Assembly (NCBI GenBank): GCA_011364975.1
Contig: RDOE01000013.1
Coordinates: 1 to 58,356 of the forward strand
Direction: 5' to 3'
DNA length: 58,356 nt
DNA from: Promethearchaeota archaeon
GTDB lineage: Archaea; Asgardarchaeota; Lokiarchaeia; Sigyniarchaeales; SOKP01
Part shown: positions 3,251 to 58,171 of the stretch, in pieces
Layout of the letters: the number at the start of each line of letters is the position of its first letter
Position numbering within the stretch: the stretch's first letter is position 1
The notes under the pieces: model-generated
The model's database searches: none
What the model was told of the DNA's origin: nothing
The model's input: only the letters and a program-made list of their open reading frames with translations
Translations under genes and position numbers: made by a program

Positions 3251-5242
3251 CTATTGAAGATTATCCTTTAGATCCATAAAATAATCCAAGGATTCTGGAT
3301 TTCTTAACGCACCTCTATTCGCTACAGACATTCCTCTTAGAATTTTCGTAACAGCAATTTCCACTTTCTTACCTGAAAATGTGTAGGGTATTCCGTCGAT
3401 AGGAACTTGAAGAATTTTTGAGGGAACATGTCTGGGAGATGTTTTTGCCCTAATAGTTTTCTTTATTGTTTCTTCAAGCTCATCCGATAATTTAAGATTT
3501 TCATTCAATTGCACAAATAATAATATTTCTATGTTCCCTTGATTATCAGGAAGTCCAATTGCTAAACTATCAGTTACTTCCGGGAGTTGTTCTACTACAT
3601 TGTAAATTTCTGATGTACCAATTCTCACACCTGATGGTTTTAAAGTAGCATCAGAGCGACCCAAAAAAGTAATTCCCCCTGTATTACTATGTTCGATAAT
3701 CCAATCGCCATGTCGCCATACATTAATTCCTTGATCTTTATAAAAGTCAAAGTAGGCAGTTGTATATTTAGTCATAATATCATCATCACCCCAGAAATAA
3801 ATCGGCATTGAGGGGGAAGGAGCTTCACATACCAATTCTGCTTCTATATCTTTTACTGGTTTGCCCTCTTCATCGTAGGCTTGTACTTTCATAGCTAAGG
3901 CTTTACCTTGTAATTCCCCTGAATATACTGGGAGTATTGGAAGCGCTGTAGCAAAGCATCCATTTATATCCGTTCCTCCTGAAATGGAATTAAGATATAA
4001 ATCTTCCTTAATTTCCTTATAGACCCACTCAAATCCTTCAGGACTCAAAGTACTTGCTGTTTGAGAAATTTCTCTTAAAGAACTTAAATTATACTTTTCT
4101 TTTGGTTTTAAGTTTTGACCCATTAAATAATGTAAATAAGTCGCTGAAACTCCAAAAACTGTTACTTTAAATTTTTCAATAAGCTCAAACATTCTTAATG
4201 GATCTGGATAAAGTGGATTACCATCATAAAGAAGTATTGTTGCGCCTACAGCTAATGAGCTAATGAGCCAATTCCACATCATCCATGAGGGTGCAGTAAT
4301 ATAATTAATAATATCATTACGCTTTAAATCAGTAAATAAGATAAGTTCCTTTAAATGATTGATAAGAACTCCTCCTCCACTCTGAACCATACATTTTGGA
4401 ATTCCCGTAGTTCCACTTGAGAACATAATATAAACGGGATGATTAAAATCGACTTGCTCGAAGTGTGGCTTAACATCTTCCTTGGAGATAAAATCCTCCC
4501 AATGTACCGCTTTAGGTAAATTACTTATGTCAGGTTTAGTTTCAGATACATATTGGACGACTATAACTTTTTCTATGGAAGGAATTGCCTCCACTACAGC
4601 TTTTGCGTTAGAAATAATATTAAATACCTTATCTCTGTAGTAATATCCATCAACTGTGAATAGTACTTTTGGCTTAATTTGACTAAATCTATCAATCACA
4701 GCACTGGATTGAAGTTCAGCTCCACATGAGGCCCAAATTGCACCTATACTAGTTGTTGCAAGCATTGCGATTGGGGTTTCAATTAGGTTTGGGATATAGG
4801 ACACTACTCTATCTCCTTTTTTAACACCCATATCACGAAGTGATTTTGCTAATTTTGCTACAGCAATATTCAATTCCTTATAGGTCATTCGAGCAGTTTT
4901 CATTGATTCTCCTTGGAAAATAAAAGCTAATTGATTATCATTATATTTTAAAAGGTTTTGAGCAAAATTCAATTTGGCATCTGGAAACCATTGTGTCCCG
5001 GGAAATTTATTCAAATCATCTACAACCTTAGTATATTTTTTTGATGAAATTATGTTTCCAAATTCCCACATCGCAGCCCAAAAATCTTCAATTTTTTCCA
5101 CAGACCATTTGTATAGCTCCTTACCACCTTTAATTTTTAACTTATATTTCTTATTCACAAAATCTATAAACTTAGTAGCTTCTGCATTTTTAATCCATTC
5201 TTTTGACGGTTCCCATAATTTTTTTCTAATTTCTGAGATAAT
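3251..5242 (-). CDS. acetoacetate-CoA ligase (acetoacetyl-CoA synthetase)
   Basis: YIMFSSGTTGIPK, SISGGTD, WRHGD and GRSDATLKPSGVRIGTSEIY. The frame extends past GTG5158 to include the N-terminal LWEPS motif, so the start is probably ATC5239 or ATT5242. Confidence 0.9.
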   Translation of the reverse strand: MISEIRKKLWEPSKEWIKNAEATKFIDFVNKKYKLKIKGGKELYKWSVEKIEDFWAAMWEFGNIISSKKYTKVVDDLNKFPGTQWFPDAKLNFAQNLLKYNDNQLAFIFQGESMKTARMTYKELNIAVAKLAKSLRDMGVKKGDRVVSYIPNLIETPIAMLATTSIGAIWASCGAELQSSAVIDRFSQIKPKVLFTVDGYYYRDKVFNIISNAKAVVEAIPSIEKVIVVQYVSETKPDISNLPKAVHWEDFISKEDVKPHFEQVDFNHPVYIMFSSGTTGIPKCMVQSGGGVLINHLKELILFTDLKRNDIINYITAPSWMMWNWLISSLAVGATILLYDGNPLYPDPLRMFELIEKFKVTVFGVSATYLHYLMGQNLKPKEKYNLSSLREISQTASTLSPEGFEWVYKEIKEDLYLNSISGGTDINGCFATALPILPVYSGELQGKALAMKVQAYDEEGKPVKDIEAELVCEAPSPSMPIYFWGDDDIMTKYTTAYFDFYKDQGINVWRHGDWIIEHSNTGGITFLGRSDATLKPSGVRIGTSEIYNVVEQLPEVTDSLAIGLPDNQGNIEILLFVQLNENLKLSDELEETIKKTIRAKTSPRHVPSKILQVPIDGIPYTFSGKKVEIAVTKILRGMSVANRGALRNPESLDYFMDLKDNLQ

Positions 5243-31511: not shown

Positions 31512-33074
31512 TTACTTTAATTTTCTTGTGTTTACAATAGCATCCAACATTACCTTTAAATTTTCATATATTTTAGTTCGAAAATCAGGTCCAATTTTTA
31601 GAAAGAGAATGGTAACAAGTTTTTCCTCCAAATTTTCTTCAATATTTAACTCTTCCATAAACCGAGACCAATTACTATCATCATCAACCCTAATTGCAAC
31701 AACTATTACCCTCTTTTTTCTAATTTTTTGAGTAACTTCAATCAAAAAATCTTTCCAATTTGGAGCAATATGTTTCTTTTCTCTCGCGTCAAAAACACAG
31801 AATACACCGTCTGAATTTGAAAGATTAAAGTTTTTATAAGTAAAGCAGCTTAAAATTAAACCATTTTTATATGTAAATAACTTCTCTTGTGAATTATTTT
31901 TAATTTCAGAATAATCGCCTAGCTTTTCAATATCAAATATAGTTTGAAAACCTGGATTCCAACTAAGCGTTTCATTAATAAAAGTTAACTCTAAAATCAC
32001 CAATTCTTTAAGGGTTAAATTTATTGCTCTATAGAGCTCATCTTTCAGGATTTCTCTTTCTTTTTGTTTACTTTTCATGATATAATGATAAGCTATTAAT
32101 TCAAAAGCTTCGTGTACATTTTCACCAGTTAAGGCGCTTGTTTCTAAGTAGGAAAGCCCTTCTTCAGAAAGAGAGGAAGCTAATTTTTGACCCTTTTCAG
32201 TAGAAATTTGTCGTTCATTGCTTAAATCAGATTTATTTCCAATGATAATTATAGGTATATCTTTTTCATCAAGAAGATTGGAAATTTCTTGAAACCAATT
32301 ATTAATGTTGATAAATGAGGAGGGTTGAGTTAAATCAAATACAACAAATGCAGCTTCTGCACCTGAATAATACATCTTCCTGAATCTTTTAAAATATTGC
32401 TGAGCTCCAATATCCCATAATTGCACATTTATATCATTTCCTTCAAAATTAAAGTTATGAGCTAAAATATTAAGACCTATTGTTGCTCGATAATCAGCCG
32501 AAAATTTTTTTTCAACAAAACGCCGTACAATAGAAGTTTTTCCTACTTCATGATCCCCAACTATTATAAATTTAAAAGCATAGGTACCATATTCCTCTTT
32601 ATTAGATTGAAAAATTGAATGCTTTAATTTTTCATGTCGATCTAATTCTTGTTCAAAATCAGGAATTGAAAGTTGTATTAAATCCTGCTCTTTTGCGTTT
32701 ATAATTTGAGCACATTTTTCAGCTAAAAAATAGGCATAAGGAGATACTTTTTCTACTGAAGCCATTGCATTAAAAATTATACTCAGAATTCTCTCTTCAT
32801 CAATTGAAATGAATAAAAGTCTATATTCATCTGTATCAAATGAGCCTGTTCCGAACTTTTTGAAAGCAAACTCATTTCGGATTCGTTCTAAAACGGGATT
32901 AATTAAGATGGTCAATACAGAAACAATTTCAAGACTGCTTTGAATATCTTTTCTTTTTTCTCCAGCAATTATTAATCCTTCTACATCTGAAACTACAACT
33001 GCTTCTACATCCGTAAACTTATCAATAAAATTATTTAAAATCTCAGTAAACATCTTATTTCTATTTATAACCAT
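31512..33074 (-). CDS. Roadblock-like domain + Rab-like small GTPase + degenerate GTPase-like domain
   Basis: VEAVVVSDVEGLIIA (Roadblock), GDHEVGKTS, TIG, WDIGAQ, GNKSD, ETSAL; C-terminal SDGVFCVFDAR. Confidence 0.85.
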   Translation of the reverse strand: MVINRNKMFTEILNNFIDKFTDVEAVVVSDVEGLIIAGEKRKDIQSSLEIVSVLTILINPVLERIRNEFAFKKFGTGSFDTDEYRLLFISIDEERILSIIFNAMASVEKVSPYAYFLAEKCAQIINAKEQDLIQLSIPDFEQELDRHEKLKHSIFQSNKEEYGTYAFKFIIVGDHEVGKTSIVRRFVEKKFSADYRATIGLNILAHNFNFEGNDINVQLWDIGAQQYFKRFRKMYYSGAEAAFVVFDLTQPSSFININNWFQEISNLLDEKDIPIIIIGNKSDLSNERQISTEKGQKLASSLSEEGLSYLETSALTGENVHEAFELIAYHYIMKSKQKEREILKDELYRAINLTLKELVILELTFINETLSWNPGFQTIFDIEKLGDYSEIKNNSQEKLFTYKNGLILSCFTYKNFNLSNSDGVFCVFDAREKKHIAPNWKDFLIEVTQKIRKKRVIVVAIRVDDDSNWSRFMEELNIEENLEEKLVTILFLKIGPDFRTKIYENLKVMLDAIVNTRKLK

Positions 33075-33196: not shown

Positions 33197-34765
33197 TTAA
33201 AGAATATTCAAAATAGTGTTGAACATGACTTCAAGTTCATCATAAATCTCTAACCGATATTCAAATCCTATTTTGAAAAATAGCAAAGAAACTAATTTCT
33301 TTTCAAGATATTCGTTTACATTAAATTCTTCCATCATTATAGACCAATCAGATTCATTAGAAACTCTTAATCCGATTAATGCTACAGCATTCTCTTTAAG
33401 TTGTTGAAGAATTTTAATTATAATTTCTTTCCATCCAGAATCAATATGTTGTTTATTTCTTGCATCAAAAATAATAAAAACTCCATCTGAATTTGTAACA
33501 TCAAACTCTTTAAATAAGTAATTGTTAATTTTTACTCCATTGGAATATTCATATACTCGTTTGTCTTTATCATCAATTGCTTTATCACATTCGCATAAGC
33601 TATTCACTTCATTAAGAATTTGAAATCCAGGACTCCAATAAGGATTTTCAGTTATAAATGTTACATTTAATGAAGCTTTTTTATTTAATATCGATTTAAT
33701 TATACCCATTAATCGAATTCTTAACTTTTCTTCCTCTTTTTCTTTGCTTCTAATGATATAATGGTACGCGATTAATGTGAATGCATCCTCGATGTTTTCT
33801 CCTGTAAGAGCGCTTGTTTCAATGTACGAGATATCTCTATTTTGGCTTTCTTTTGCTAGCTCATTCACAAATTTGACTCCATCTTGATATGATACTGATC
33901 TTTCTTGGGGTAAGTCGATTTTATTTCCTACAATAACAATAGGAATATCCTTATTCTTAACATAATCATAAAGTTCTTTATACCACTTTTTTATATTACT
34001 AAAAGACGCAGTATTTGAGATATCAAATACTATGAACCCTGCTTGCGTTCCCAAATAATATGTTTTTCTAAATCTTTTAAAGTAATCCTGAGCTCCTATA
34101 TCCCAGAGTGAAAAATCAATCTGATTGCCATAAAATTCCATCGAATGGGCAAGAATATTTAACCCAATTGTGGCTCTATAATCTAAAGAAAACTTATTTT
34201 CGACAAATCTGCGAATGATAGAAGTTTTACCAACCTCGTGGTCTCCAATAATAACGAATTTGAATTTATAGACACCACCAGAATCCAATCTCATCTGGTA
34301 TATTTGTTCCTTTATTCTTTGAGAACTTTCAGATGAATCAGATTCGATTTCAAAGTTTGGAATATAAACTTGAACCATATCACCTTCTTGAGCATTCATT
34401 ATTTGAGCTATCTTTTCTGCAAGAAAATAAGCATAAGGACTTATTTTATCAATAGAAGCCAATGTGTCCAAAACTAAACTCAAAATTATATTCTCATCAA
34501 TTGAAATAAATAGTAAACGAAATTCTTCTGTATCAAAACTCGCAGTTCCATACTTCTTAAAAGCAAATTCATTTCGCATTCTCTCTAAAATTGGATTTAT
34601 TAATCCAGTTAAAACAGATACTAATTCTATATCAACATTATCACGTTTTTCACCAGAAATTATAAAACCTTCATGATCCGAAATTAAAACTGCTTTTACA
34701 TCTTCGTTAATTGTTAAAAAATTATTTAACAGCTCTTTAAAGAGCTTATCGCTTTTAAGAGACAT
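33197..34765 (-). CDS. Roadblock-like domain + Rab-like small GTPase + degenerate GTPase-like domain (paralog)
   Basis: VKAVLISDHEGFIIS, GDHEVGKTS, WDIGAQ, GNKID, ETSAL, SDGVFIIFDAR; colinear with 31512..33074. Confidence 0.85.
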   Translation of the reverse strand: MSLKSDKLFKELLNNFLTINEDVKAVLISDHEGFIISGEKRDNVDIELVSVLTGLINPILERMRNEFAFKKYGTASFDTEEFRLLFISIDENIILSLVLDTLASIDKISPYAYFLAEKIAQIMNAQEGDMVQVYIPNFEIESDSSESSQRIKEQIYQMRLDSGGVYKFKFVIIGDHEVGKTSIIRRFVENKFSLDYRATIGLNILAHSMEFYGNQIDFSLWDIGAQDYFKRFRKTYYLGTQAGFIVFDISNTASFSNIKKWYKELYDYVKNKDIPIVIVGNKIDLPQERSVSYQDGVKFVNELAKESQNRDISYIETSALTGENIEDAFTLIAYHYIIRSKEKEEEKLRIRLMGIIKSILNKKASLNVTFITENPYWSPGFQILNEVNSLCECDKAIDDKDKRVYEYSNGVKINNYLFKEFDVTNSDGVFIIFDARNKQHIDSGWKEIIIKILQQLKENAVALIGLRVSNESDWSIMMEEFNVNEYLEKKLVSLLFFKIGFEYRLEIYDELEVMFNTILNIL

Positions 34766-44082: not shown

Positions 44083-46401
44083 ATGGTAAAAAAATCAGAT
44101 TTAAAGAAATTGAACTCAATTATGCAAGAAGGAAATGAGTTCAAAAATGAAAAGCAATATAACAGTGCAATTGAAAAATATCTGGAAGCCTTAAGATTCG
44201 TTGAAGACAAAGTAAAAGATCCCATAGAAAAAGAAGATGAAATGTCAAACATTAAATCTCAAATAGATCAAGTCTATTCAGTGGAAATTATTGATATCAT
44301 AGAGAGAGCTAATGATTACTCAATGGATAAGAAATTTAGTGAGGCATATGATACCTTTAAGGAAGCAATGAGAATCGCCGATAAGATTGTTGATAAGGAT
44401 ATGAGAGATTATGAAGTAAAACAAATTAATTATTTAATAGAAGAAACAAAACTTAAGCAGGTAATTTATCAAGCAACGTTATTACGTAATGAAGAACAAT
44501 TCAATAAGGCTATAACTATACTAAATGATGCTTTAAACACGGGCATTTCAATACATAAAGAGGATCCAAACCATAAAATAATAAAAAACATCCAAAATGT
44601 AATTAATGAGACATATTCTCAAAAAGTCCATTTACAAATAGATAAAGCAAACCAACTTAAGGGAGAAGGGAAAATGAAGTTTATCAAGAAGCTTTGAAAA
44701 TTATAGAGAATTATTTTGAGTCTGAAATAAAGACCAATGATATTGTCGATCTGAAAAATCTAATTAACCAGGTCTTTTCTATTAAAATTAAGCCTATCTT
44801 AGAAAGGGGTAAATTACTCTTCGATCAAGGTAATTTTTCTGATGCTGTTAAAGAATTTGAGATTGCTTTGGAAATAGCTGATAGTATGTATGATTCACCA
44901 CAAAAGCAGTCTGAAATTAGTCAAATCAATAGTATAGCATCTAAGGCATTAAATCCTGTTTACTTAGAACGTATTAAACCCATATTTGACAAAGGTAAAG
45001 AATTAATTATTAAAGAGAATTTTCAAGAAAAGATTAATATTGTAAATGAAGCTCTTGAAATGTTCGAAAAAGTATTAGATATTGCTAATAAAATGGCAGA
45101 TTCTTCTGAGAAGGAAAGTAAAATAGAGGAAGTTACTGATTTAATTAAAAAAACATGTCGTACACGGATTACATACATTAAAGATAATGCTCTAAGAAAA
45201 TTAGCTCAAAAAGAATATGAGAAAGCAGTAAACGATCTTTATGCTGCTATAAGCATTGCAAAAAGGATGCCTGTACCTGAAGAACAAAACCAAGATTTAG
45301 AAGATTTAAAGAGTTCAGTAAATAAAGCATATATTACTCAAATTGATGAAGTTGTTAAAGAGGGTAATGAAGAGTTAAGAAAGAACAATTACGATGCAGC
45401 AATTAAAATATTTAATGAAGCCATGGTAATGACAAATAAGATGTATCTTACTGAAGAAATGGAAAATGAAGTAAATAAGATTAAAAGTTTGATTTATCAA
45501 GTAGAATTAAAGCAGTTAGTTGGTCGCGGTGATTTAGCAGAAGAACTACAAAAGTATGAAAAGGAAATTGAGCGTTTAACCAAAAAGATGGAATATGCAA
45601 AAACGATTGATGACAAAGACCGTAAATTTGCAGAGATGGGTAAAATAAAGGACTCAATAGATGAAGTATATCATTCTAAAATTAAATTATTAGTAGAACA
45701 AGGCAATCAACTTGCAGATAAGGAACAATTTGAGGAATCTTTTGAAAATTTTAAACGAGCAATAAAAATAAATGATATGATTGAAAGCCCCGTATTTAAA
45801 AATAAAATTGCGATAAAGTATGAATATAAACATAAAATTATTCAGAAGGCTAAGCTTGAAATTTCACGAGAACGCTATGATACTGCAATAATTGATTGTA
45901 ATAAAGCAATTGAACTAGATAATAGTTTTGTTAAAGCGTATTTCTATATTGGAATGGCCAATATTAATAAGAAGGATTATATCACGGCAATTGAATATTT
46001 TAAGAAAGCGTTGGAATTGGACTCGCAACACGCAAAATCATGGAATCATATGGGATTTTCATATGAAAAATTAGCAGAATTTGATAATGCAATCGAAGCC
46101 TATAAAAAAGCTGTAGATATTAAACCCAGTTATTCTGAAGCTTTCTTTAACATGGGAAATTCATATAAGTATAACGAAGAATATGATCGCGCCATTGAAG
46201 CTTATAAGAAGGCTACAGAGATTAACACCGAATTTGCAAATGCATGGTTCTTCATGGGAGCAGCTTATTTCGATAAGAAAGATTATAATAAAGCAATGGA
46301 GCTTATCAAAAAAGCTGTTGAGATAAATCCTAATTTAGGATTTAAAAAAGGATTTAGATAAACTTGAGGAAAAATTAGCAACTAAATTCTTAAATCAATA
46401 A
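44083..46401 (+). pseudogene. large TPR/alpha-solenoid protein with two frameshifts
   Basis: ORFs 44083..44697 and 44694..46361 are continuous TPR-like sequence across a frame change near 44673. A third frame gives a natural-looking end DLKKDLDKLEEKLATKFLNQ* at 46339-46401. Confidence 0.7.
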
Positions 46402-46472: not shown

Positions 46473-47369
46473 TTATAGCAGATTGGAAGCATACTGTTCC
46501 ACCAAGTAACTTAACTTTTCAGTATCAAGTTGATTCCTTTCGATTTCGGGACACATATGCTCAAGATGACAAAGTAGTTCATTTAAGCCATCTTCTGCTT
46601 CTTTAACATCAATATTGTCCGAATCACTTAGAATTAATGAGCCCATGAGGTTTTTTGATCGTTTAAATACAATTACGTTTCCTCCCATTTTTAATTGATT
46701 TAACTCTGAATTGAAGGATTCCTTTACAAAGCTATTAATAGCAGCAAATAATCCCCCTTGGAGGATATCGTTATTGCTAGAAGATGTTAATGGAATTCCA
46801 CCTTGATCAAAAACTGTGACTGCTTTAGGACTTATTTTTTTCCTCAGTTGTTTTCCAGTTAGTTTATAATAGATTTTCATGAACGCTTTAACAATCCCAA
46901 ATCCTGTTTTACAAGATACAGGCAATATTTCAAAGGAAGGTAATTTATGTAAATCTAACGCATCAATAATCTCACCTAATGAAGCTGTTGGTTGGAGATC
47001 ATACTTATTTGCTAAAACAATCAAAGATCTTTTCTTAAAAACATCAGAGAGCTTCCAAAGCTCGTCTTTTGCTTCTGAAAATCGTTCTCTAGCGTATGCA
47101 TCAATCATAAAGATAACACATTCTGCATGAGCACACTCACCGAGCCACAAATCCCTGAAATCACTTTGACCACCCATATCCATGAGATTAATTCGAATAC
47201 CTTGAACTTCCATCGTATTAAGTTCTTTACCCATCGTTGGAGTATGTTCGATAAATGTACCAGTTTGTAAAAAGCTAACCATTGTCGTTTTTCCTGATGA
47301 ATCCAATCCACAAAGTACAACACGTTTTTCTTTTGTAAATACTCTTTTTAATATCTCTTTAACTCCCAT
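46473..47369 (-). CDS. Arf-like small GTPase fused to a C-terminal longin-like domain
   Basis: MGVKEILKRVF N-helix, GLDSSGKTT, PTMG, DMGGQ, ANKYD, SCKTG; C-terminal VFDQGGIPL...LQGGLFAAINSF. Confidence 0.88.
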   Translation of the reverse strand: MGVKEILKRVFTKEKRVVLCGLDSSGKTTMVSFLQTGTFIEHTPTMGKELNTMEVQGIRINLMDMGGQSDFRDLWLGECAHAECVIFMIDAYARERFSEAKDELWKLSDVFKKRSLIVLANKYDLQPTASLGEIIDALDLHKLPSFEILPVSCKTGFGIVKAFMKIYYKLTGKQLRKKISPKAVTVFDQGGIPLTSSSNNDILQGGLFAAINSFVKESFNSELNQLKMGGNVIVFKRSKNLMGSLILSDSDNIDVKEAEDGLNELLCHLEHMCPEIERNQLDTEKLSYLVEQYASNLL

Positions 47370-47586
47370 TTTTGTTCAATAAAATTTGTGTAATTTTTAG
47401 AATTGTTATAAAAAATAATCAATAAAAATTCTTTTTTTTATTCAATTAGTTGTACTAAACGTACGGATTATGCAAAAACTGTAATTTTACACACAATAGC
47501 ATCTATTTATTTCTTAACTATTGTAAATAAATTTAACCAAGATAAAAAAAAGATAAAAAAAGTTATGAGATAAATAAAAATTTAAG

Positions 47587-48240
47587 TTATTCCTTTATTA
47601 CAAACTTGGATATCCAAGTTCCAATAATTTTTTGTTCTTCTTCCTGATTTGGAAATACATATTTTTCATAGAATCCTTTAGTGCCTAGAAGAAAGGTCGC
47701 GCTTGCAATTATTTTGAAAACTTCAAACATAAAAGGCATCTGAAACATTTGGCCGAATCCCCAGAACAAAAAAAATAATCCCATTCCAATAGCGACACCA
47801 TTTCGATTTTTTTTTCCATCTCTTAAAAGTATGTAAGCAGGAGTGTAACTCAGAATAACCGCATAAATGATAAAAGGCATTACATTTATAACTAATAAAT
47901 TACCAGCAACCAAATAGAAGGTAATAATAAATGGGACTATATAAAATCTTTTTAAGCCTCGTAGATAAAGCATGAATTCGAATTGAACTAAAAATAAGAT
48001 ATACCCAAAAATGAATCCGATTTTAAGTCCTCCTATTAAATAGATGTTGGTATTAATTTGTAGAATGAGTGCCATTAATTCGAATCCACCGTAAATAAGC
48101 ACAGAGATGGTATAAATAGACACTGCTACATACATACGATTTTTAGTATCTCGCCATCGCTTAATACATGGTATTAAAGCTGCAATCATTAGACCTATTA
48201 CTAATAATTCTGTTGCTATTAGATTATATTGCACTGCCAT
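47587..48240 (-). CDS. predicted 7-TM membrane protein
   Basis: Seven hydrophobic segments by eye; likely start ATG48240, 1 nt after the upstream TAA. Confidence 0.75.
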   Translation of the reverse strand: MAVQYNLIATELLVIGLMIAALIPCIKRWRDTKNRMYVAVSIYTISVLIYGGFELMALILQINTNIYLIGGLKIGFIFGYILFLVQFEFMLYLRGLKRFYIVPFIITFYLVAGNLLVINVMPFIIYAVILSYTPAYILLRDGKKNRNGVAIGMGLFFLFWGFGQMFQMPFMFEVFKIIASATFLLGTKGFYEKYVFPNQEEEQKIIGTWISKFVIKE

Positions 48241-48241
48241 T

Positions 48242-48886
48242 TTACTTACCATCCCCCTCTTTGAAAATTTTAAAGTATCCAAGTGAAAATATTACAATAA
48301 AGATGTTATAGGTAATTATTATTATTTGATTTACGAAAGATAAATCTAATATCAAGGTACTAAATGCTAATGTGAAAAAAATAGCTAAACCAAGGGCTCC
48401 ATTGTCTCTAACTCGAAAACTCGTAATATATATGAATACTAGACTAGCAATGGCCGCTATTTGTATATATACATCAACCCAAGCATCAAATCCAGTAAAA
48501 TAATAAAAAATTACCATACCGCCAAAGAAAAATAGTGAAGCATAATAGAATGTCTCCCATCGATTTGCATAGAAAATCAAGGTTAATCCTAATGATACCA
48601 TCGTACCGATTAATATTGAATATAAATTAATAGTCTCAGTGTTATAACCAAATATCTCGTTTAAGAATGGAAACCATGATATATGCACCAAGTATTCCAA
48701 AACGCTCATTATTGCAAAACATGTAAAAATTGAAAAAGTTATGAGTCTAATGTAATTATATTGTCCTGTAACTCTTTTTTCTTTAAATATTTTCCTTCCT
48801 AAGATCATGGTTGCTAAGGGTATGAGTACTGCACTAAGTAAATAGCCTATTTGCCTTAGATTTTCAATTAAAAGATCTTCTGCCAT
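48242..48886 (-). CDS. predicted 7-TM membrane protein (likely paralog of 47587..48240)
   Basis: Seven hydrophobic segments; DNGALGLAIFF resembles RNGVAIGMGLFF of the neighbour; TAATG overlap with the upstream gene. Confidence 0.75.
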   Translation of the reverse strand: MAEDLLIENLRQIGYLLSAVLIPLATMILGRKIFKEKRVTGQYNYIRLITFSIFTCFAIMSVLEYLVHISWFPFLNEIFGYNTETINLYSILIGTMVSLGLTLIFYANRWETFYYASLFFFGGMVIFYYFTGFDAWVDVYIQIAAIASLVFIYITSFRVRDNGALGLAIFFTLAFSTLILDLSFVNQIIIITYNIFIVIFSLGYFKIFKEGDGK

Positions 48887-49380
48887 TAGAAAAAACTCCC
48901 TTTTAATTCTGGTTTTGATTTTAATATTTGAGCTTTAATCTCTTTAAAAATTCGTGAAAAATCAATCAATAAATCTTCAATGTAGACATCTGATTCACTA
49001 TTTATTCCTTCATAGATGGTTTGATGATAATTAGCAAGCATTTCTTCATTTAGTAAACCATTTCTTTCCAGTAGCTCGATTAATTCCTTCAACGCAGGTT
49101 TATAAATATCAACTTTATCTCGTTTATATAATAAGATAGAAAGAGAAAATAAATCATCTCTATTTGCCTCTTGTTCCACCTTAAAAATATAGGATAAAAC
49201 TAGGTATTTCTTATATCGATCTTCAATAAATTTGCCTGCTTTTGCACCAATTGGGAAACAAGACTGTAGAATTTCTCGTTCATTCCCAATTGCAGTAACC
49301 GAAGGGTATGAACTGATTATTTCAGGATTACTTCCCACGAATCCCCCTAATTTTGCTAAAATTGCATACTCCGAAGCCAT
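48886..49380 (-). CDS. stand-alone uDENN/longin-like protein
   Basis: AILAKLGGFVGSNPEIISSYP and ILQSCFPIG resemble uDENN P-x5-YP and FCFP motifs; later strands and helix fit a longin fold. Confidence 0.55.
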   Translation of the reverse strand: MASEYAILAKLGGFVGSNPEIISSYPSVTAIGNEREILQSCFPIGAKAGKFIEDRYKKYLVLSYIFKVEQEANRDDLFSLSILLYKRDKVDIYKPALKELIELLERNGLLNEEMLANYHQTIYEGINSESDVYIEDLLIDFSRIFKEIKAQILKSKPELKGSFF

Positions 49381-49617
49381 AATCAAAACCTTCTTTTTAA
49401 TTTTAATCTCAATATAGGATCAAAAATTGATCTATCTTTTTTATTAAATCTAATTTAACCCTAATTGTATTTAGATCATAGGTAAAAGATTTTATTTAAA
49501 AATTGGATTTTTTTTTATCTTTTTTGTGCGAACATCACAAATTAATGTATACAAAAGTTCATATTTTGGTAAAAAAAATATGATAAGAAAAGAATTTGGT
49601 AATAAATTATTAATTCT

Positions 49618-50886
49618 TCAAAAGGTCATAGCTTTAAGGAATTTCGGCCAAAGTGTAATCTTATTAATAGTAGGCAAAGTTGAGAATAACTTCTCTCCCA
49701 CCCATCGATCATTATCAGTGTTATATTTCTTTAAATCTTGGAGCATTATTACTTCATATACATATTTTCTAGCTGTTTTGTTATGTACTAACATTTCAGT
49801 ATATGCATTCCAGATTGATTTTAAAGAGGATTGATTTCCATAAAAGAGATATTCGCAAGCGTTTCCATTTCTAAAATATCCATCTAGAAGTAATTCGGCT
49901 ATTTCTTTATCATAAACTCTTAATTCTGCAGAGCTGAAATTGGAATTACTTTCAACTAAGGGTTTAACAACTTTAGAAGCCGTGTCTGCACTTACTAAAC
50001 CGCATAACATACCTTCATAAAAAAAGGCGGTAACTAATCCCGCGGCTTCACCTAACACAATTACTCTATCAGCGGTCATTCTACTAATAGGGTGCTTTGA
50101 AATATCCCCAATGACCACATTATCAAAATTCCAGCTAATTCCTTTTATATACTGCTGTATTTTCTGATAATTATTTAAGATTCTTTCTAACTTGGATTTC
50201 AATTCCATTGGAGTCTCCTTATCACCCATAAATCCAGTAAAGATACGCCCTTTTCCTACATTGAAGAAAAATGGTCCATTCTTGCTTATATTAGGATTAA
50301 GATGGAACATATATTGGAAATTAAAATTTTCATTTAAGAGCTCTTCACTAGCATTTGATATAAGGTAAATTCCCATAAAAGAATCTGGTGCTTCAAATCC
50401 GAGAGATTTTTGCAATTCAAATCCGTAGGATCCGCTGGCTAAAACTAAGAGTTTGGTATGATATGAGTCTCCTTTACTGTTTACTAACTCAATGGAATCC
50501 GTATGTCTAATAATTTTTGATATTTTTTCATTAAATTTTGTTGTAGCCCCTTGATCAACAGCTTTATTGATTAATTTGTGCAGGAAAACGTCAGTGTGAG
50601 TGATTCTCCCAACTTGAGGGGATCCAAATTCATTTCCTGAGATCAACCCATCTGATTTCTCACTCTTATAATTGAGTGTAAGAAATTCTTTGGGAAATGC
50701 TTCTTTATCATTCCAAAATAGATCATCCACATAGGGTTTGTTATGCTGAGCAAATATGTTCACTCGTTCTGGTATTTGCTTACTATAATTTTTAGCGTCT
50801 ATAAGTAAAACTTTTGCATATTTAGATGTTTTATACGCAAAAGATGTACCAGTAACTCCAGCTCCAATGACTGCTACATCATACAT
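49618..50886 (-). CDS. geranylgeranyl-reductase-family FAD oxidoreductase
   Basis: YDVAVIGAGVTG, LVLASG, VLGEAAGLVTAFFYEGM. Confidence 0.8.
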   Translation of the reverse strand: MYDVAVIGAGVTGTSFAYKTSKYAKVLLIDAKNYSKQIPERVNIFAQHNKPYVDDLFWNDKEAFPKEFLTLNYKSEKSDGLISGNEFGSPQVGRITHTDVFLHKLINKAVDQGATTKFNEKISKIIRHTDSIELVNSKGDSYHTKLLVLASGSYGFELQKSLGFEAPDSFMGIYLISNASEELLNENFNFQYMFHLNPNISKNGPFFFNVGKGRIFTGFMGDKETPMELKSKLERILNNYQKIQQYIKGISWNFDNVVIGDISKHPISRMTADRVIVLGEAAGLVTAFFYEGMLCGLVSADTASKVVKPLVESNSNFSSAELRVYDKEIAELLLDGYFRNGNACEYLFYGNQSSLKSIWNAYTEMLVHNKTARKYVYEVIMLQDLKKYNTDNDRWVGEKLFSTLPTINKITLWPKFLKAMTF

Positions 50887-50977
50887 GATTAACACCTAAA
50901 ATTAATTACCCTAAAAAAAGCTTATTTAATATTTAATAATCTTAATTGTCTGGAAAAAGAGTGGAGGATGAAAGTTG

Positions 50978-55921: not shown

Positions 55922-58171
<2,250 letters not shown>

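Follow-up and report, generated by a model that had tools for sequence, protein, structure and literature searches.

A stretch of 58,356 nt on contig RDOE01000013.1 (GCA_011364975.1), hereafter the window, comes from a Promethearchaeota archaeon of the order Sigyniarchaeales and carries at positions 46,473–49,380 a module of four consecutive minus-strand genes (open reading frames (ORFs) 48886..49386, 48242..48886, 47587..48282 and 46473..47369). They encode a soluble protein (S), two membrane proteins with seven transmembrane helices (7TM proteins; MA and MB) and a GTPase (ARF). The module is inherited and duplicated as a unit and is kept together through rearrangements. We hypothesize, giving it about an even chance, that the four genes form one functional unit, a membrane-docked small-GTPase switch in which S is the probable GTPase-activating protein (GAP) and MA and MB serve as a platform or sensor; we are less sure of the GAP detail than of the whole. 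The features of the locus are collected in Table 1.

The S/MA junction reads TTC-TAATG-GCA, a stop/start overlap, and the MA/MB junction reads GGT AAG TAA A ATG; the tight coupling of these three genes was already described, correctly, in an earlier sequence-only reading of the window. The spacer between MB and ARF has a GC content of 0.18, with T5, T7 and T8 runs inside its first 90 nt. The spacer, AT-rich and marked by oligo-T runs, is likely a terminator and promoter region, and ARF is probably a separate or attenuated transcript. The earlier suggestion that the Arf-like gene has its own transcript agrees with the wider sample described below, in which an AT-rich MB–ARF gap of 124–278 nt occurs in 34 of 34 modules with the same gene order and T-runs occur in 32 of them. 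Pfam and NCBIfam scans of the four proteins return a family name for ARF only, and an Rfam scan of the window gives no match. PADLOC finds no match for S, MA, MB or the upstream gene P0005 and one stray DndH match on ARF (E 0.0055), so that a reading of the module as a defence system is unsupported. Each of S, MA and MB has about 90–125 close homologues of constant length, and these genes are therefore more than chance ORFs.

A profile search for S covered 400 genomes of the phylum with nine candidates scored per genome, which makes absences soft, and returned matches in 68 genomes. By family, with genome G000 left out, these are 41 of 134 genomes in the family of the window's source (its own family), 5 of 14 and 3 of 4 in two other families of the order, and 8 of 31, 9 of 12 and 1 of 2 in three families elsewhere in the phylum. 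Gene linkage was read from the window and 60 loci of 57 genomes, together 58 of the 68 genomes matched (locus numbers carry the prefix L), and their ORFs were scanned with S, MA, MB and ARF profiles. Of the 67 S-like genes in this sample, 60 share their module with an Arf-family gene, and 60 adjoin one or more polytopic membrane genes. The order S-MA-MB-ARF, that of the window, accounts for 35 of the 67; three modules are incomplete at a contig end after MB begins. The order ARF-S-MA-MB is found in nine cases, with 12–65 nt from ARF to S, and ARF is divergent from S-MA-MB in one (L072); a genome assembled as a single contig (G138) is among those carrying the ARF-S-MA-MB order. ARF and S alone occur twice, as second copies (L046, L078), and two further ARF-S pairs are ended by a contig end. 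Eleven genes belong to a three-gene variant composed of an S-like gene, an Arf-family GTPase of 174–206 aa without the extra domain, and a single 7TM protein of 271–321 aa; the GTPases of this variant match Pfam Arf at 9e-41 and 6e-37, and it occurs in families other than the window's own. Four S-like genes (L042, L050, L075 and L076) fall in other arrangements. The sequence-only reading had tied ARF to the other genes by proximity only, and with these counts the link is far stronger: the four-gene association is conserved across many related genomes.

Among the four remaining cases, L042:7647-8474 (-) is a 275-aa ORF in which S, to about residue 155, runs in frame with the ARF C-terminal domain; the locus lacks MA, MB and the GTPase domain. 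A genuine deletion or fusion may lie behind this ORF, or else an assembly artefact. L050 contains S and two transmembrane proteins and no GTPase. L075:4998-5681 (-) and L076:4773-5429 (+) encode S-like proteins of 218–227 aa in which a Cys-rich N-terminus (CPICS...C.H) replaces the first two strands and a conserved Arg, discussed below, is changed to K or A; neither a GTPase nor MA/MB is adjacent to them. In a maximum-likelihood tree of S the three-gene form makes up one clade (99/97), and the side on which ARF lies switches at least three times, on well-supported branches, with ARF still adjacent.

Two complete modules are present in four loci of four genomes. The copies within a genome diverge by 52–65% in S, 62–68% in MA, 64–80% in MB and 30–33% in ARF. 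For each component, the closest relative mostly belongs to the corresponding module in a different genome; the pattern is cleanest for one module type in L035/L036 and weaker in L039 and L041 (an ARF assignment for L039 was erroneous in this comparison), so that the modules appear to have been duplicated as units. Across the sampled loci, flanking genes differ in L034, L038 and L044–L047. With MB as the query and nearly all candidates scored (22 of 23–24 in three genomes), MB is found in 39 of 135 genomes of the window's family; S and MB are both present in 38 genomes of the family, with one MB-only and four S-only genomes. Of the 41 other species-genomes in the genus, 22 carry the module and 19 do not; S and MB are missing from the same 19, six of which are rated 100% complete. 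Chance adjacency is unlikely, with 65 small-GTPase matches in the 3.74 Mb of the source genome.

Table 1. Features of the four-gene locus, with positions in the window and residue numbers of the respective protein
Feature	Positions	Strand	Description
S	48889..49380	-	164 aa from ATG 49380; alternative TTG start 49386 (166 aa); stop 48886-48888 overlaps MA ATG
S N18-P19-E20	49321..49329	-	Loop directly before beta2; GP-motif position of GAP-type longins
S R74-D75-D76	49153..49161	-	Beta4-beta5 loop; candidate arginine finger
MA	48245..48886	-	214 aa, 7TM; stop 48242-48244
MA motif D161-F171	48374..48406	-	DNGALGLAIFF; cytoplasmic loop 3/TM6 junction
MB	47590..48240	-	217 aa from ATG 48240 (231 aa from TTG, ORF to 48282); stop 47587-47589
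MB motif N147-F157	47770..47802	-	NGVAIGMGLFF; cytoplasmic loop 3/TM6 junction
MB C-terminal tail, residues 188-217	47590..47679	-	Conserved, predicted cytoplasmic; model pLDDT 48-69
MB-ARF spacer	47370..47586	-	217 nt, AT-rich, oligo-T runs
ARF GTPase domain, residues 1-172	46854..47369	-	Predicted N-terminal amphipathic helix; Pfam Arf; ATG at 47369
ARF C-terminal domain, residues ~178-298	46476..46838	-	Longin-like by secondary-structure pattern; stop 46473-46475

The protein S has 99 homologues at E 0.001 or better (52–98% identity, nearly all 163–167 aa), and those with a named source come from Asgard archaea. Its AlphaFold2 model, calculated from a 34-sequence alignment (predicted local distance difference test (pLDDT) 86.5, predicted template modelling score (pTM) 0.82), shows the topology beta-beta-alpha-beta-beta-beta-alpha-alpha (strands 3–11 and 19–25, helix 34–41, strands 51–56, 59–67 and 77–84, helices 87–106 and 112–128). 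This is the order of a longin, with two further helices besides it. Foldseek returns eight matches at E 0.001 or better, namely SEA/GATOR1 chains and a Lokiarchaeota Roadblock-Longin protein. The VIA structural comparison places on top a GATOR1 chain, which we take to be NPRL2, the catalytic subunit of this Rag GAP, from its length and its label N in 6ces, with Z 11.0–12.8 over 151–155 of 164 residues, S 1–164 lying on chain residues 5–173. Chains of the yeast SEA complex (Npr2) reach Z 11.0–12.1. Other longins score lower and include the DENND1 uDENN (Z 9.0, 127 residues aligned), Lst4 (8.8), sigma adaptins (8–9), DENND10 (8.6), C9orf72/SMCR8 (7.0–7.6) and Mon1-Ccz1 (6.8–6.9); generic longins align 106–134 residues of S, against 151–155 for the NPRL2-type chains. 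The 34 chains with Z of 8 or more that are listed all contain a longin (NPRL2, Npr2, Loki Roadblock-Longin 8yqg, Lst4, sigma adaptins, Ykt6).

S had been read earlier as a uDENN/longin-like protein. The longin half of that description is borne out by AlphaFold2, Foldseek and VIA alike, whereas "DENN-like" proves too specific, because S has no cDENN or dDENN module (the longin and its helices fill the 164 aa, and no Pfam DENN family matches at E up to 1) and because NPRL2 is closer than DENND1 (Z 12.8 versus 9.0). Judged by its model, S is a longin of the NPRL2 kind and no DENN protein.

The best-conserved sites of S are L11-G12-G13, S17-N18-(P19)-E20 and R74-D75-D76. Across 34 S sequences N18 and E20 are invariant, P19 is found in at least 90%, and R74-D75-D76 is invariant; the Arg equivalent to Arg74 is retained in 65 of the 67 S-like genes, covering three module types. 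The two genes lacking it, L075 and L076, are both orphans with no adjacent GTPase. According to the available text of PMC12290439, a G-P motif in the loop before beta2, beside the arginine finger, is common to NPRL2, FLCN, SMCR8 and C9orf72, all longins of the GAP type, and some Asgard longins carry both elements, their client GTPases being left open there. NPRL2 Arg78 is cited as the finger in the available part of PMC8213707, and S Arg74 could be its counterpart, judging from the N-terminal offset of +4 between the aligned ranges. The conserved Arg, combined with the NPRL2-type fold, favours a GAP role for S over that of a pure adaptor or guanine nucleotide exchange factor (GEF). The C-terminal tail LKGSFF is near-invariant and modelled with low confidence, with DDLW in its place in the three-gene clade; we regard it as a candidate docking peptide.

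ARF matches Pfam Arf (PF00025) over residues 5–166 with E 7.1e-33 and 114 bits (cut-off 22.3), confirming the Arf-like GTPase proposed in the same orientation beyond the 217-nt spacer, and it is the top Arf match among the 65 small-GTPase matches of its own genome. The closest PDB sequences are 8oun, 8oul, 8oum and 8ouk, labelled "Arf GTPase" or "GTP-binding protein" (1e-25 to 3e-22), which we guess to be Asgard ArfR structures; eukaryotic ARF1 follows with 6e-24. The motifs GLDxxGK[ST]T, PTxGK, DxGGQ (with Q68 invariant), NKxD and S[CA]KTG are kept in 21 orthologues, and residues 2–13 are amphipathic in 21 of 21 sequences (hydrophobic moment muH 0.42–0.70). By its motifs, ARF is a catalytically competent Arf-family GTPase. 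Pfam SRPRB also matches ARF with 28.1 bits (cut-off 25) and the module GTPases of the three-gene variant with 34.5 and 30.8 bits, and G-alpha matches of 4.5e-5 and 3.7e-9 on module Arf-domain proteins are both under cut-off.

The C-terminal domain of ARF (about 120 residues) is conserved in the 21 orthologues and has no Pfam or PDB sequence match. Its label as longin-like comes from the pattern beta-beta-alpha-beta-beta-beta-alpha-alpha, read by eye. GTPase-longin and GTPase-roadblock fusions are described for MK-D1 in the available text of PMC10933270. A strong-looking match between S and this domain was an artefact of the L042 fusion row in the alignment and was discarded.

Sequences similar to this domain are also found apart from the GTPase. 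In two ARF-S-MA-MB loci, a short ORF after MB (L044:9821-10273 (+) and L074:2934-3338 (+)) matches the ARF C-terminal domain only and occupies the place that ARF holds in the common gene order. Some 1 kb downstream of the three-gene variant, two further ORFs (L082:2927-4330 + 4403-5087 (+), similarly L083–L086) each contain a stretch that weakly resembles this domain (E ~1e-5); the first is 465–481 aa long, the second is incomplete at the contig or locus end, and the L082 pair has no Pfam family.

MA and MB have 124 and 87 homologues, respectively. The AlphaFold2 model of MB (35 sequences; pLDDT 83.7, pTM 0.79) consists of seven transmembrane helices (TM1 to TM7), with a small hairpin within outer loop 1 and a tail modelled at low confidence, and MA has seven hydrophobic segments by hydropathy, collinear with TM1 to TM7 of MB. 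Alignments of 132 and 79 sequences match in hhalign with a probability of 97.3% and E 1.8e-11 over 178 columns (E 0.02 only when shallow alignments are used), so MA and MB are clearly paralogues, predicted to have one common fold; the seven-helix topology of the MB model therefore covers MA, in line with the two 7TM proteins of about 215 aa that had been proposed. The shared motif noted earlier at TM6 also holds: the single BLASTP match between the two proteins is RVRDNGALGLAIFF / KNRNGVAIGMGLFF, at the cytoplasmic start of TM6, with D161-N162-G163 invariant in 35 MA sequences and N147, G148, A150, G152, M153, G154 and F157 invariant in 35 MB sequences.

The loops after TM1, TM3 and TM5 (cytoplasmic loops 1, 2 and 3) and the tail are rich in Lys/Arg, and the positive-inside rule therefore predicts an N-out, C-in orientation for both proteins. 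Conservation is highest on the predicted cytoplasmic side, with 0.79 for cytoplasmic, 0.68 for membrane and 0.52 for outside positions in MB and 0.74, 0.66 and 0.54 in MA. Loop 3 is the most conserved region of MA (0.92), and the cytoplasmic tail of MB, of about 30 residues, is tied highest among the MB regions (mean majority fraction 0.85). An exhaustive MA profile search among 1.84 billion proteins gave 91 representatives, all of 52–281 aa, which leaves no room for a fused output domain. The earlier statement that these proteins lack a cytoplasmic output domain stands for known domains (Pfam, NCBIfam), with the conserved MB tail as a part that it had missed.

Neither MA nor MB matches a Pfam, NCBIfam or PDB sequence, apart from a sub-threshold Mim2 match on the first 33 residues of MA. 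A 66-member alignment of MA relatives gives a best PDB E of 0.83 and has no Pfam family in common; the stray matches among its members are LysE (one), ATPase_gene1 (one) and TgpA_N (two). Foldseek with the MB model returns nothing at E 0.001 or better, and its top 50 matches are all G-protein-coupled receptors (GPCRs; best E 0.017, TM-score 0.41–0.49). VIA alignment against 48,161 representative chains lists first a designed soluble GPCR-like fold (Z 11.6, root-mean-square deviation (rmsd) 3.9 A, 184 residues aligned), then, among the 50 matches listed, TAS1R (11.3), ADGRL3 (10.8) and CaSR (10.5), with class C, adhesion, A and T receptors all represented in the list; the receptors superpose on about 180–190 of 217 residues with rmsd of about 4 A. 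Alkaline ceramidase 3 (Z 10.0, rmsd 8.2 A) is the sole enzyme among these 50, which also include short local helix matches. A VIA recheck of the Foldseek matches gives receptor-type bundles only and adds classes B and F. No microbial rhodopsin, PQ-loop/SWEET protein or transporter is among the 50 best VIA matches listed for MB, which is an absence from the list and not an exclusion. As a check for a transporter or enzyme identity of the membrane proteins, these comparisons give no family match by sequence and rank none above the receptors by structure. In VIA, helical bundles at Z below about 13 may share only a common arrangement; with Z of 11.6 or less, the MB bundle is therefore, and weakly, GPCR-like in arrangement only. 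In the ESM Atlas, MA and MB fall among unnamed archaeal and bacterial clusters, the nearest named ones, at the level of leads, being HisKA_7TM (10%), DUF6962 and DUF5692 at 0.76–0.80. MA and MB are a small, new 7TM family whose sole functional clue is the link to the module.

Longin and roadblock domains act as dimers cupping a GTPase, as in GATOR1, folliculin and C9orf72-SMCR8, and longins of the NPRL2 type supply an arginine finger. Polytopic membrane proteins recruit such complexes, as with SLC38A9-Ragulator for GATOR1/Rag and with PQLC2 for C9orf72-SMCR8. With this background, we infer the physical contacts, the GAP activity and any sensing of the module as follows. In the GTP state, the N-terminal amphipathic helix of ARF would bind the membrane, as in Arf proteins. 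S would pair with the longin-like C-terminal domain of ARF itself, a step suggested by L042, which fuses S to that domain (a Rosetta-stone hint), and would supply Arg74 as the arginine finger that switches ARF off. MA and MB, probably as a heterodimer, would act as the membrane platform and perhaps also as the input, a role proposed because their cytoplasmic face is their most conserved part; the conserved loops and the MB tail would recruit S, ARF or both. The state of the 7TM pair would then decide where or when ARF-GTP goes off (or on). The fast divergence of the 7TM proteins and the slow divergence of ARF between paralogous modules fit an input specificity located in the membrane proteins, although membrane proteins often diverge in this way anyway.

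Several points weigh against this switch. In the gene order of the window, a terminator-like gap separates ARF from S-MA-MB. The equivalence of S Arg74 and NPRL2 Arg78 is a candidate one, taken from aligned ranges only (offset +4 at the N-terminus and +9 at the C-terminus) and not from superposing individual residues. Before beta2, the window's own clade has the motif N-P, which is replaced by G-P in L050 and by G-L in the three-gene clade, so that the strict G-P is missing in the own clade, and many longins are GEFs or scaffolds. The profile comparison between S and the ARF C-terminal domain is not significant (E 0.19) once the L042 row is removed. Homology between the 7TM proteins of the three-gene variant (A5) and MA or MB is not demonstrable, the comparisons giving E 0.0077 and 0.12. 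The module is accessory, being absent from about half of the genus, including genomes rated 100% complete. Finally, kin share synteny by descent, and the 35 modules with this order cannot be counted as that many independent cases; because related genomes are not independent, the weight of the linkage lies in the differing orders, the duplications and the three-gene variant.

The alternative that survives best, although we consider it unlikely, keeps the module and changes the role of S to that of a GEF or of a passive scaffold, comparable to DENN, Mon1-Ccz1, the TRAPP longins or Ragulator, which would tether ARF to MA and MB. Such a role is compatible with the matches of S to GEF and scaffold longins (DENND1, DENND10, Mon1-Ccz1 and sigma adaptins, with the Z values given above), with the lack of the strict G-P motif, and with the catalytic Gln68 that ARF has of its own. 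However, the NPRL2 matches are 3–4 Z units higher and span the whole of S, and the conserved Arg tracks the presence of a GTPase neighbour, both of which speak for the GAP.

It is also conceivable, and in our judgement quite improbable, that MA and MB are a prokaryotic seven-helix receptor pair directly controlling an Arf-family GTPase, with the NPRL2-type longin as a built-in GAP. They would act in the manner of GPCRs, a signal-driven change at their cytoplasmic face catalysing nucleotide exchange on ARF, and S would be an off-switch comparable to a regulator of G-protein signalling (RGS). The predominance of GPCR-type bundles among the best structural matches listed for MB, superposable on receptors of classes C, B, F and A and on adhesion receptors, points in this direction, as do the predicted N-out/C-in topology, the conserved cytoplasmic face, the 7TM proteins diverging fastest between paralogous modules, the conserved genetic link of 7TM genes to a GTPase and a candidate GAP, and the sub-threshold G-alpha matches. 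The fold similarity nevertheless stays under a convincing level, with Z of 11.6 or less below the VIA caution level and Foldseek E of 0.017 or more at TM-scores of 0.49 or less; MA and MB have no sequence homology to GPCR families in Pfam or PDB. Their extracellular loops are short and poorly conserved, and a ligand-binding domain is missing. The GTPase is a small Arf-type one and not G-alpha, beta and gamma subunits are lacking, and in the window's own clade two paralogous 7TM genes are always present. To our knowledge, no 7TM protein has GEF activity on an Arf-family GTPase. If true, a receptor pair controlling ARF would mean 7TM-to-GTPase signalling in Asgard archaea, ancestral to or convergent with GPCR/G-protein signalling and the lysosomal 7TM-longin-GTPase sensing of nutrients.

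In a reversed relation, the GTPase and the longin would serve MA and MB, either as a targeting, insertion or trafficking device resembling the signal recognition particle (SRP) receptor or by regulating a transport or enzyme activity of MA and MB. In the SRP receptor, the longin-type SRX domain of SR-alpha binds the Arf-like, membrane-anchored SR-beta, and the SRPRB matches above cut-off on module GTPases recall that architecture; a geranylgeranyl-reductase-like gene dependent on flavin adenine dinucleotide (FAD) also lies directly upstream in the window's own family. We hold this to be very unlikely, as a core targeting machine would not be accessory and patchy in the way this module is, the Pfam Arf score of ARF far exceeds its SRPRB score (114 versus 28 bits), the reductase-like gene is not retained outside the family, and MA and MB match no transporter or enzyme family. 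That the genes are neighbours by descent only, their synteny within a family having no functional meaning, is barely credible: most of the 35 same-order modules do come from one family with syntenic flanks (c10-c6-c7-P5-c3 ... c11-c4-c8), and the small GTPase genes of MK-D1 lie generally outside operons with longin or roadblock genes in the available text of Tran et al. 2024 (PMC10933270), but three gene orders, duplications of whole modules, differing flanks, the longin/Arf/7TM trio in other families, and the shared presence and absence of S and MB stand against it.

The closest known counterpart of the membrane-docked switch is GATOR1 (NPRL2-NPRL3-DEPDC5) with the Rag GTPases. The N-terminal longin of NPRL2 is matched by S over its full length (Z up to 12.8, with 155 of 164 residues), and S has a conserved Arg in a loop; the client GTPase, as in the Rags, bears its own C-terminal domain of a dimerisation type, and both systems include a polytopic membrane protein (SLC38A9/Ragulator at the lysosome). 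Unlike in GATOR1, S is a longin alone, with no C-terminal part of NPRL2, no DEPDC5 and no NPRL3-like partner gene. ARF belongs to the Arf family and not to the Rags, MA and MB are 7TM proteins of an unmatched family, no TOR kinase context is seen, and the GAP role is here a candidate one. A second counterpart is C9orf72-SMCR8-WDR41, in which, according to the available text of PMC8213707, a longin pair cups an Arf GTPase (ARF1) and gives the Arg finger, and PQLC2, a 7TM PQ-loop transporter, recruits the complex to lysosomes. The match of S to C9orf72-SMCR8 is weaker than to NPRL2, however, DENN modules and a WDR41-like adaptor gene are lacking, and no PQ-loop protein is among the 50 best structural matches listed for MB.

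Among Asgard proteins, S is very probably one of the GAP-type longins (Traffic 2025, PMC12290439) or NPRL2-like Asgard clusters of orthologous genes (asCOGs; 10.1101/2020.10.19.343400) described in the available parts of these papers, with the difference that it carries N-P where G-P is described. As far as the available text of both goes, supplementary lists aside, neither reports a gene-neighbourhood link of such longins to an Arf-family GTPase or membrane proteins. ARF shares an amphipathic N-terminus with Asgard ArfR, and the available text of that preprint (10.1101/2024.02.28.582541) contains no operon, neighbourhood or synteny account. The fusion of a GTPase to a longin-like domain further recalls the MK-D1 fusions with longin or roadblock domains in the available text of PMC10933270.

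Other genes of the window lie around the module. P0005 (50978-51742 (-), 254 aa) gives sub-threshold matches to the first longin of FUZ/MON1/HPS1 (E 9.3e-5, 23.1 bits, cut-off 26.1) and to Sybindin. Its place 1.5–3 kb upstream of S is kept in 12 own-family sources (11 loci and the window) and not elsewhere. Between P0005 and S lies the gene of an FAD-dependent oxidoreductase of the geranylgeranyl-reductase family (49618-50895 (-); TIGR02032 1.8e-18, under cut-off), syntenic in 12 own-family sources only. Both were considered as parts of the module and rejected, being retained in the own family only. On the other side, two overlapping genes with tetratricopeptide repeats (44083-46361 (+); 204 and 555 aa) are convergent with ARF at its 3′ end, and their synteny extends to part of the own family (cluster c11). 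A tandem pair of genes (31512-33074 and 33197-34765 (-)) encodes proteins of about 520 aa that each have a central GTPase domain of Ras/Roc type (Pfam Ras 1e-48 and 5.6e-44). At 55979-58171 (+), a 730-aa haem peroxidase (Pfam peroxidase 4.5e-71, in two stretches), catalase-peroxidase-like by size, occupies the sole GC-rich stretch of the window; its GC content of 0.49, against about 0.30, suggests a foreign origin of this stretch.

Small GTPases and longin or roadblock proteins number in the dozens in Asgard genomes. A literature search over full texts and passages, supplementary tables aside, returned no description of this gene module; besides the papers cited here, it covered PMC11914678 and PMC13466386. 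The available passages of Liu et al. (10.1101/2020.10.19.343400) note a resemblance of several asCOGs of eukaryotic signature proteins (ESPs) to the NPRL2 longin and place most ESP genes outside conserved neighbourhoods; those of PMC10933270 point out that matching a GTPase to its regulators is hard, since they are rarely in operons. A 2026 report (10.64898/2026.10.28.762692) speaks in its available text, giving no details, of "7TM proteins" in Asgard archaea and of a cluster labelled "class C GPCR".

The module described here is a concrete, conserved association of an Arf-family GTPase with an NPRL2-type longin, which bears a candidate arginine finger, and with a pair of membrane proteins by which the switch could be placed on a membrane; it names a likely regulator for one archaeal Arf-like GTPase. 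With three proteins of about 160–220 residues and a GTPase of 298, the system should be reachable by expression. If the proposed switch is real, it would serve in prokaryotes as a model of the way in which longin GAPs, GTPases of the Arf/Rag type and polytopic membrane proteins joined before eukaryotic lysosomal signalling arose.

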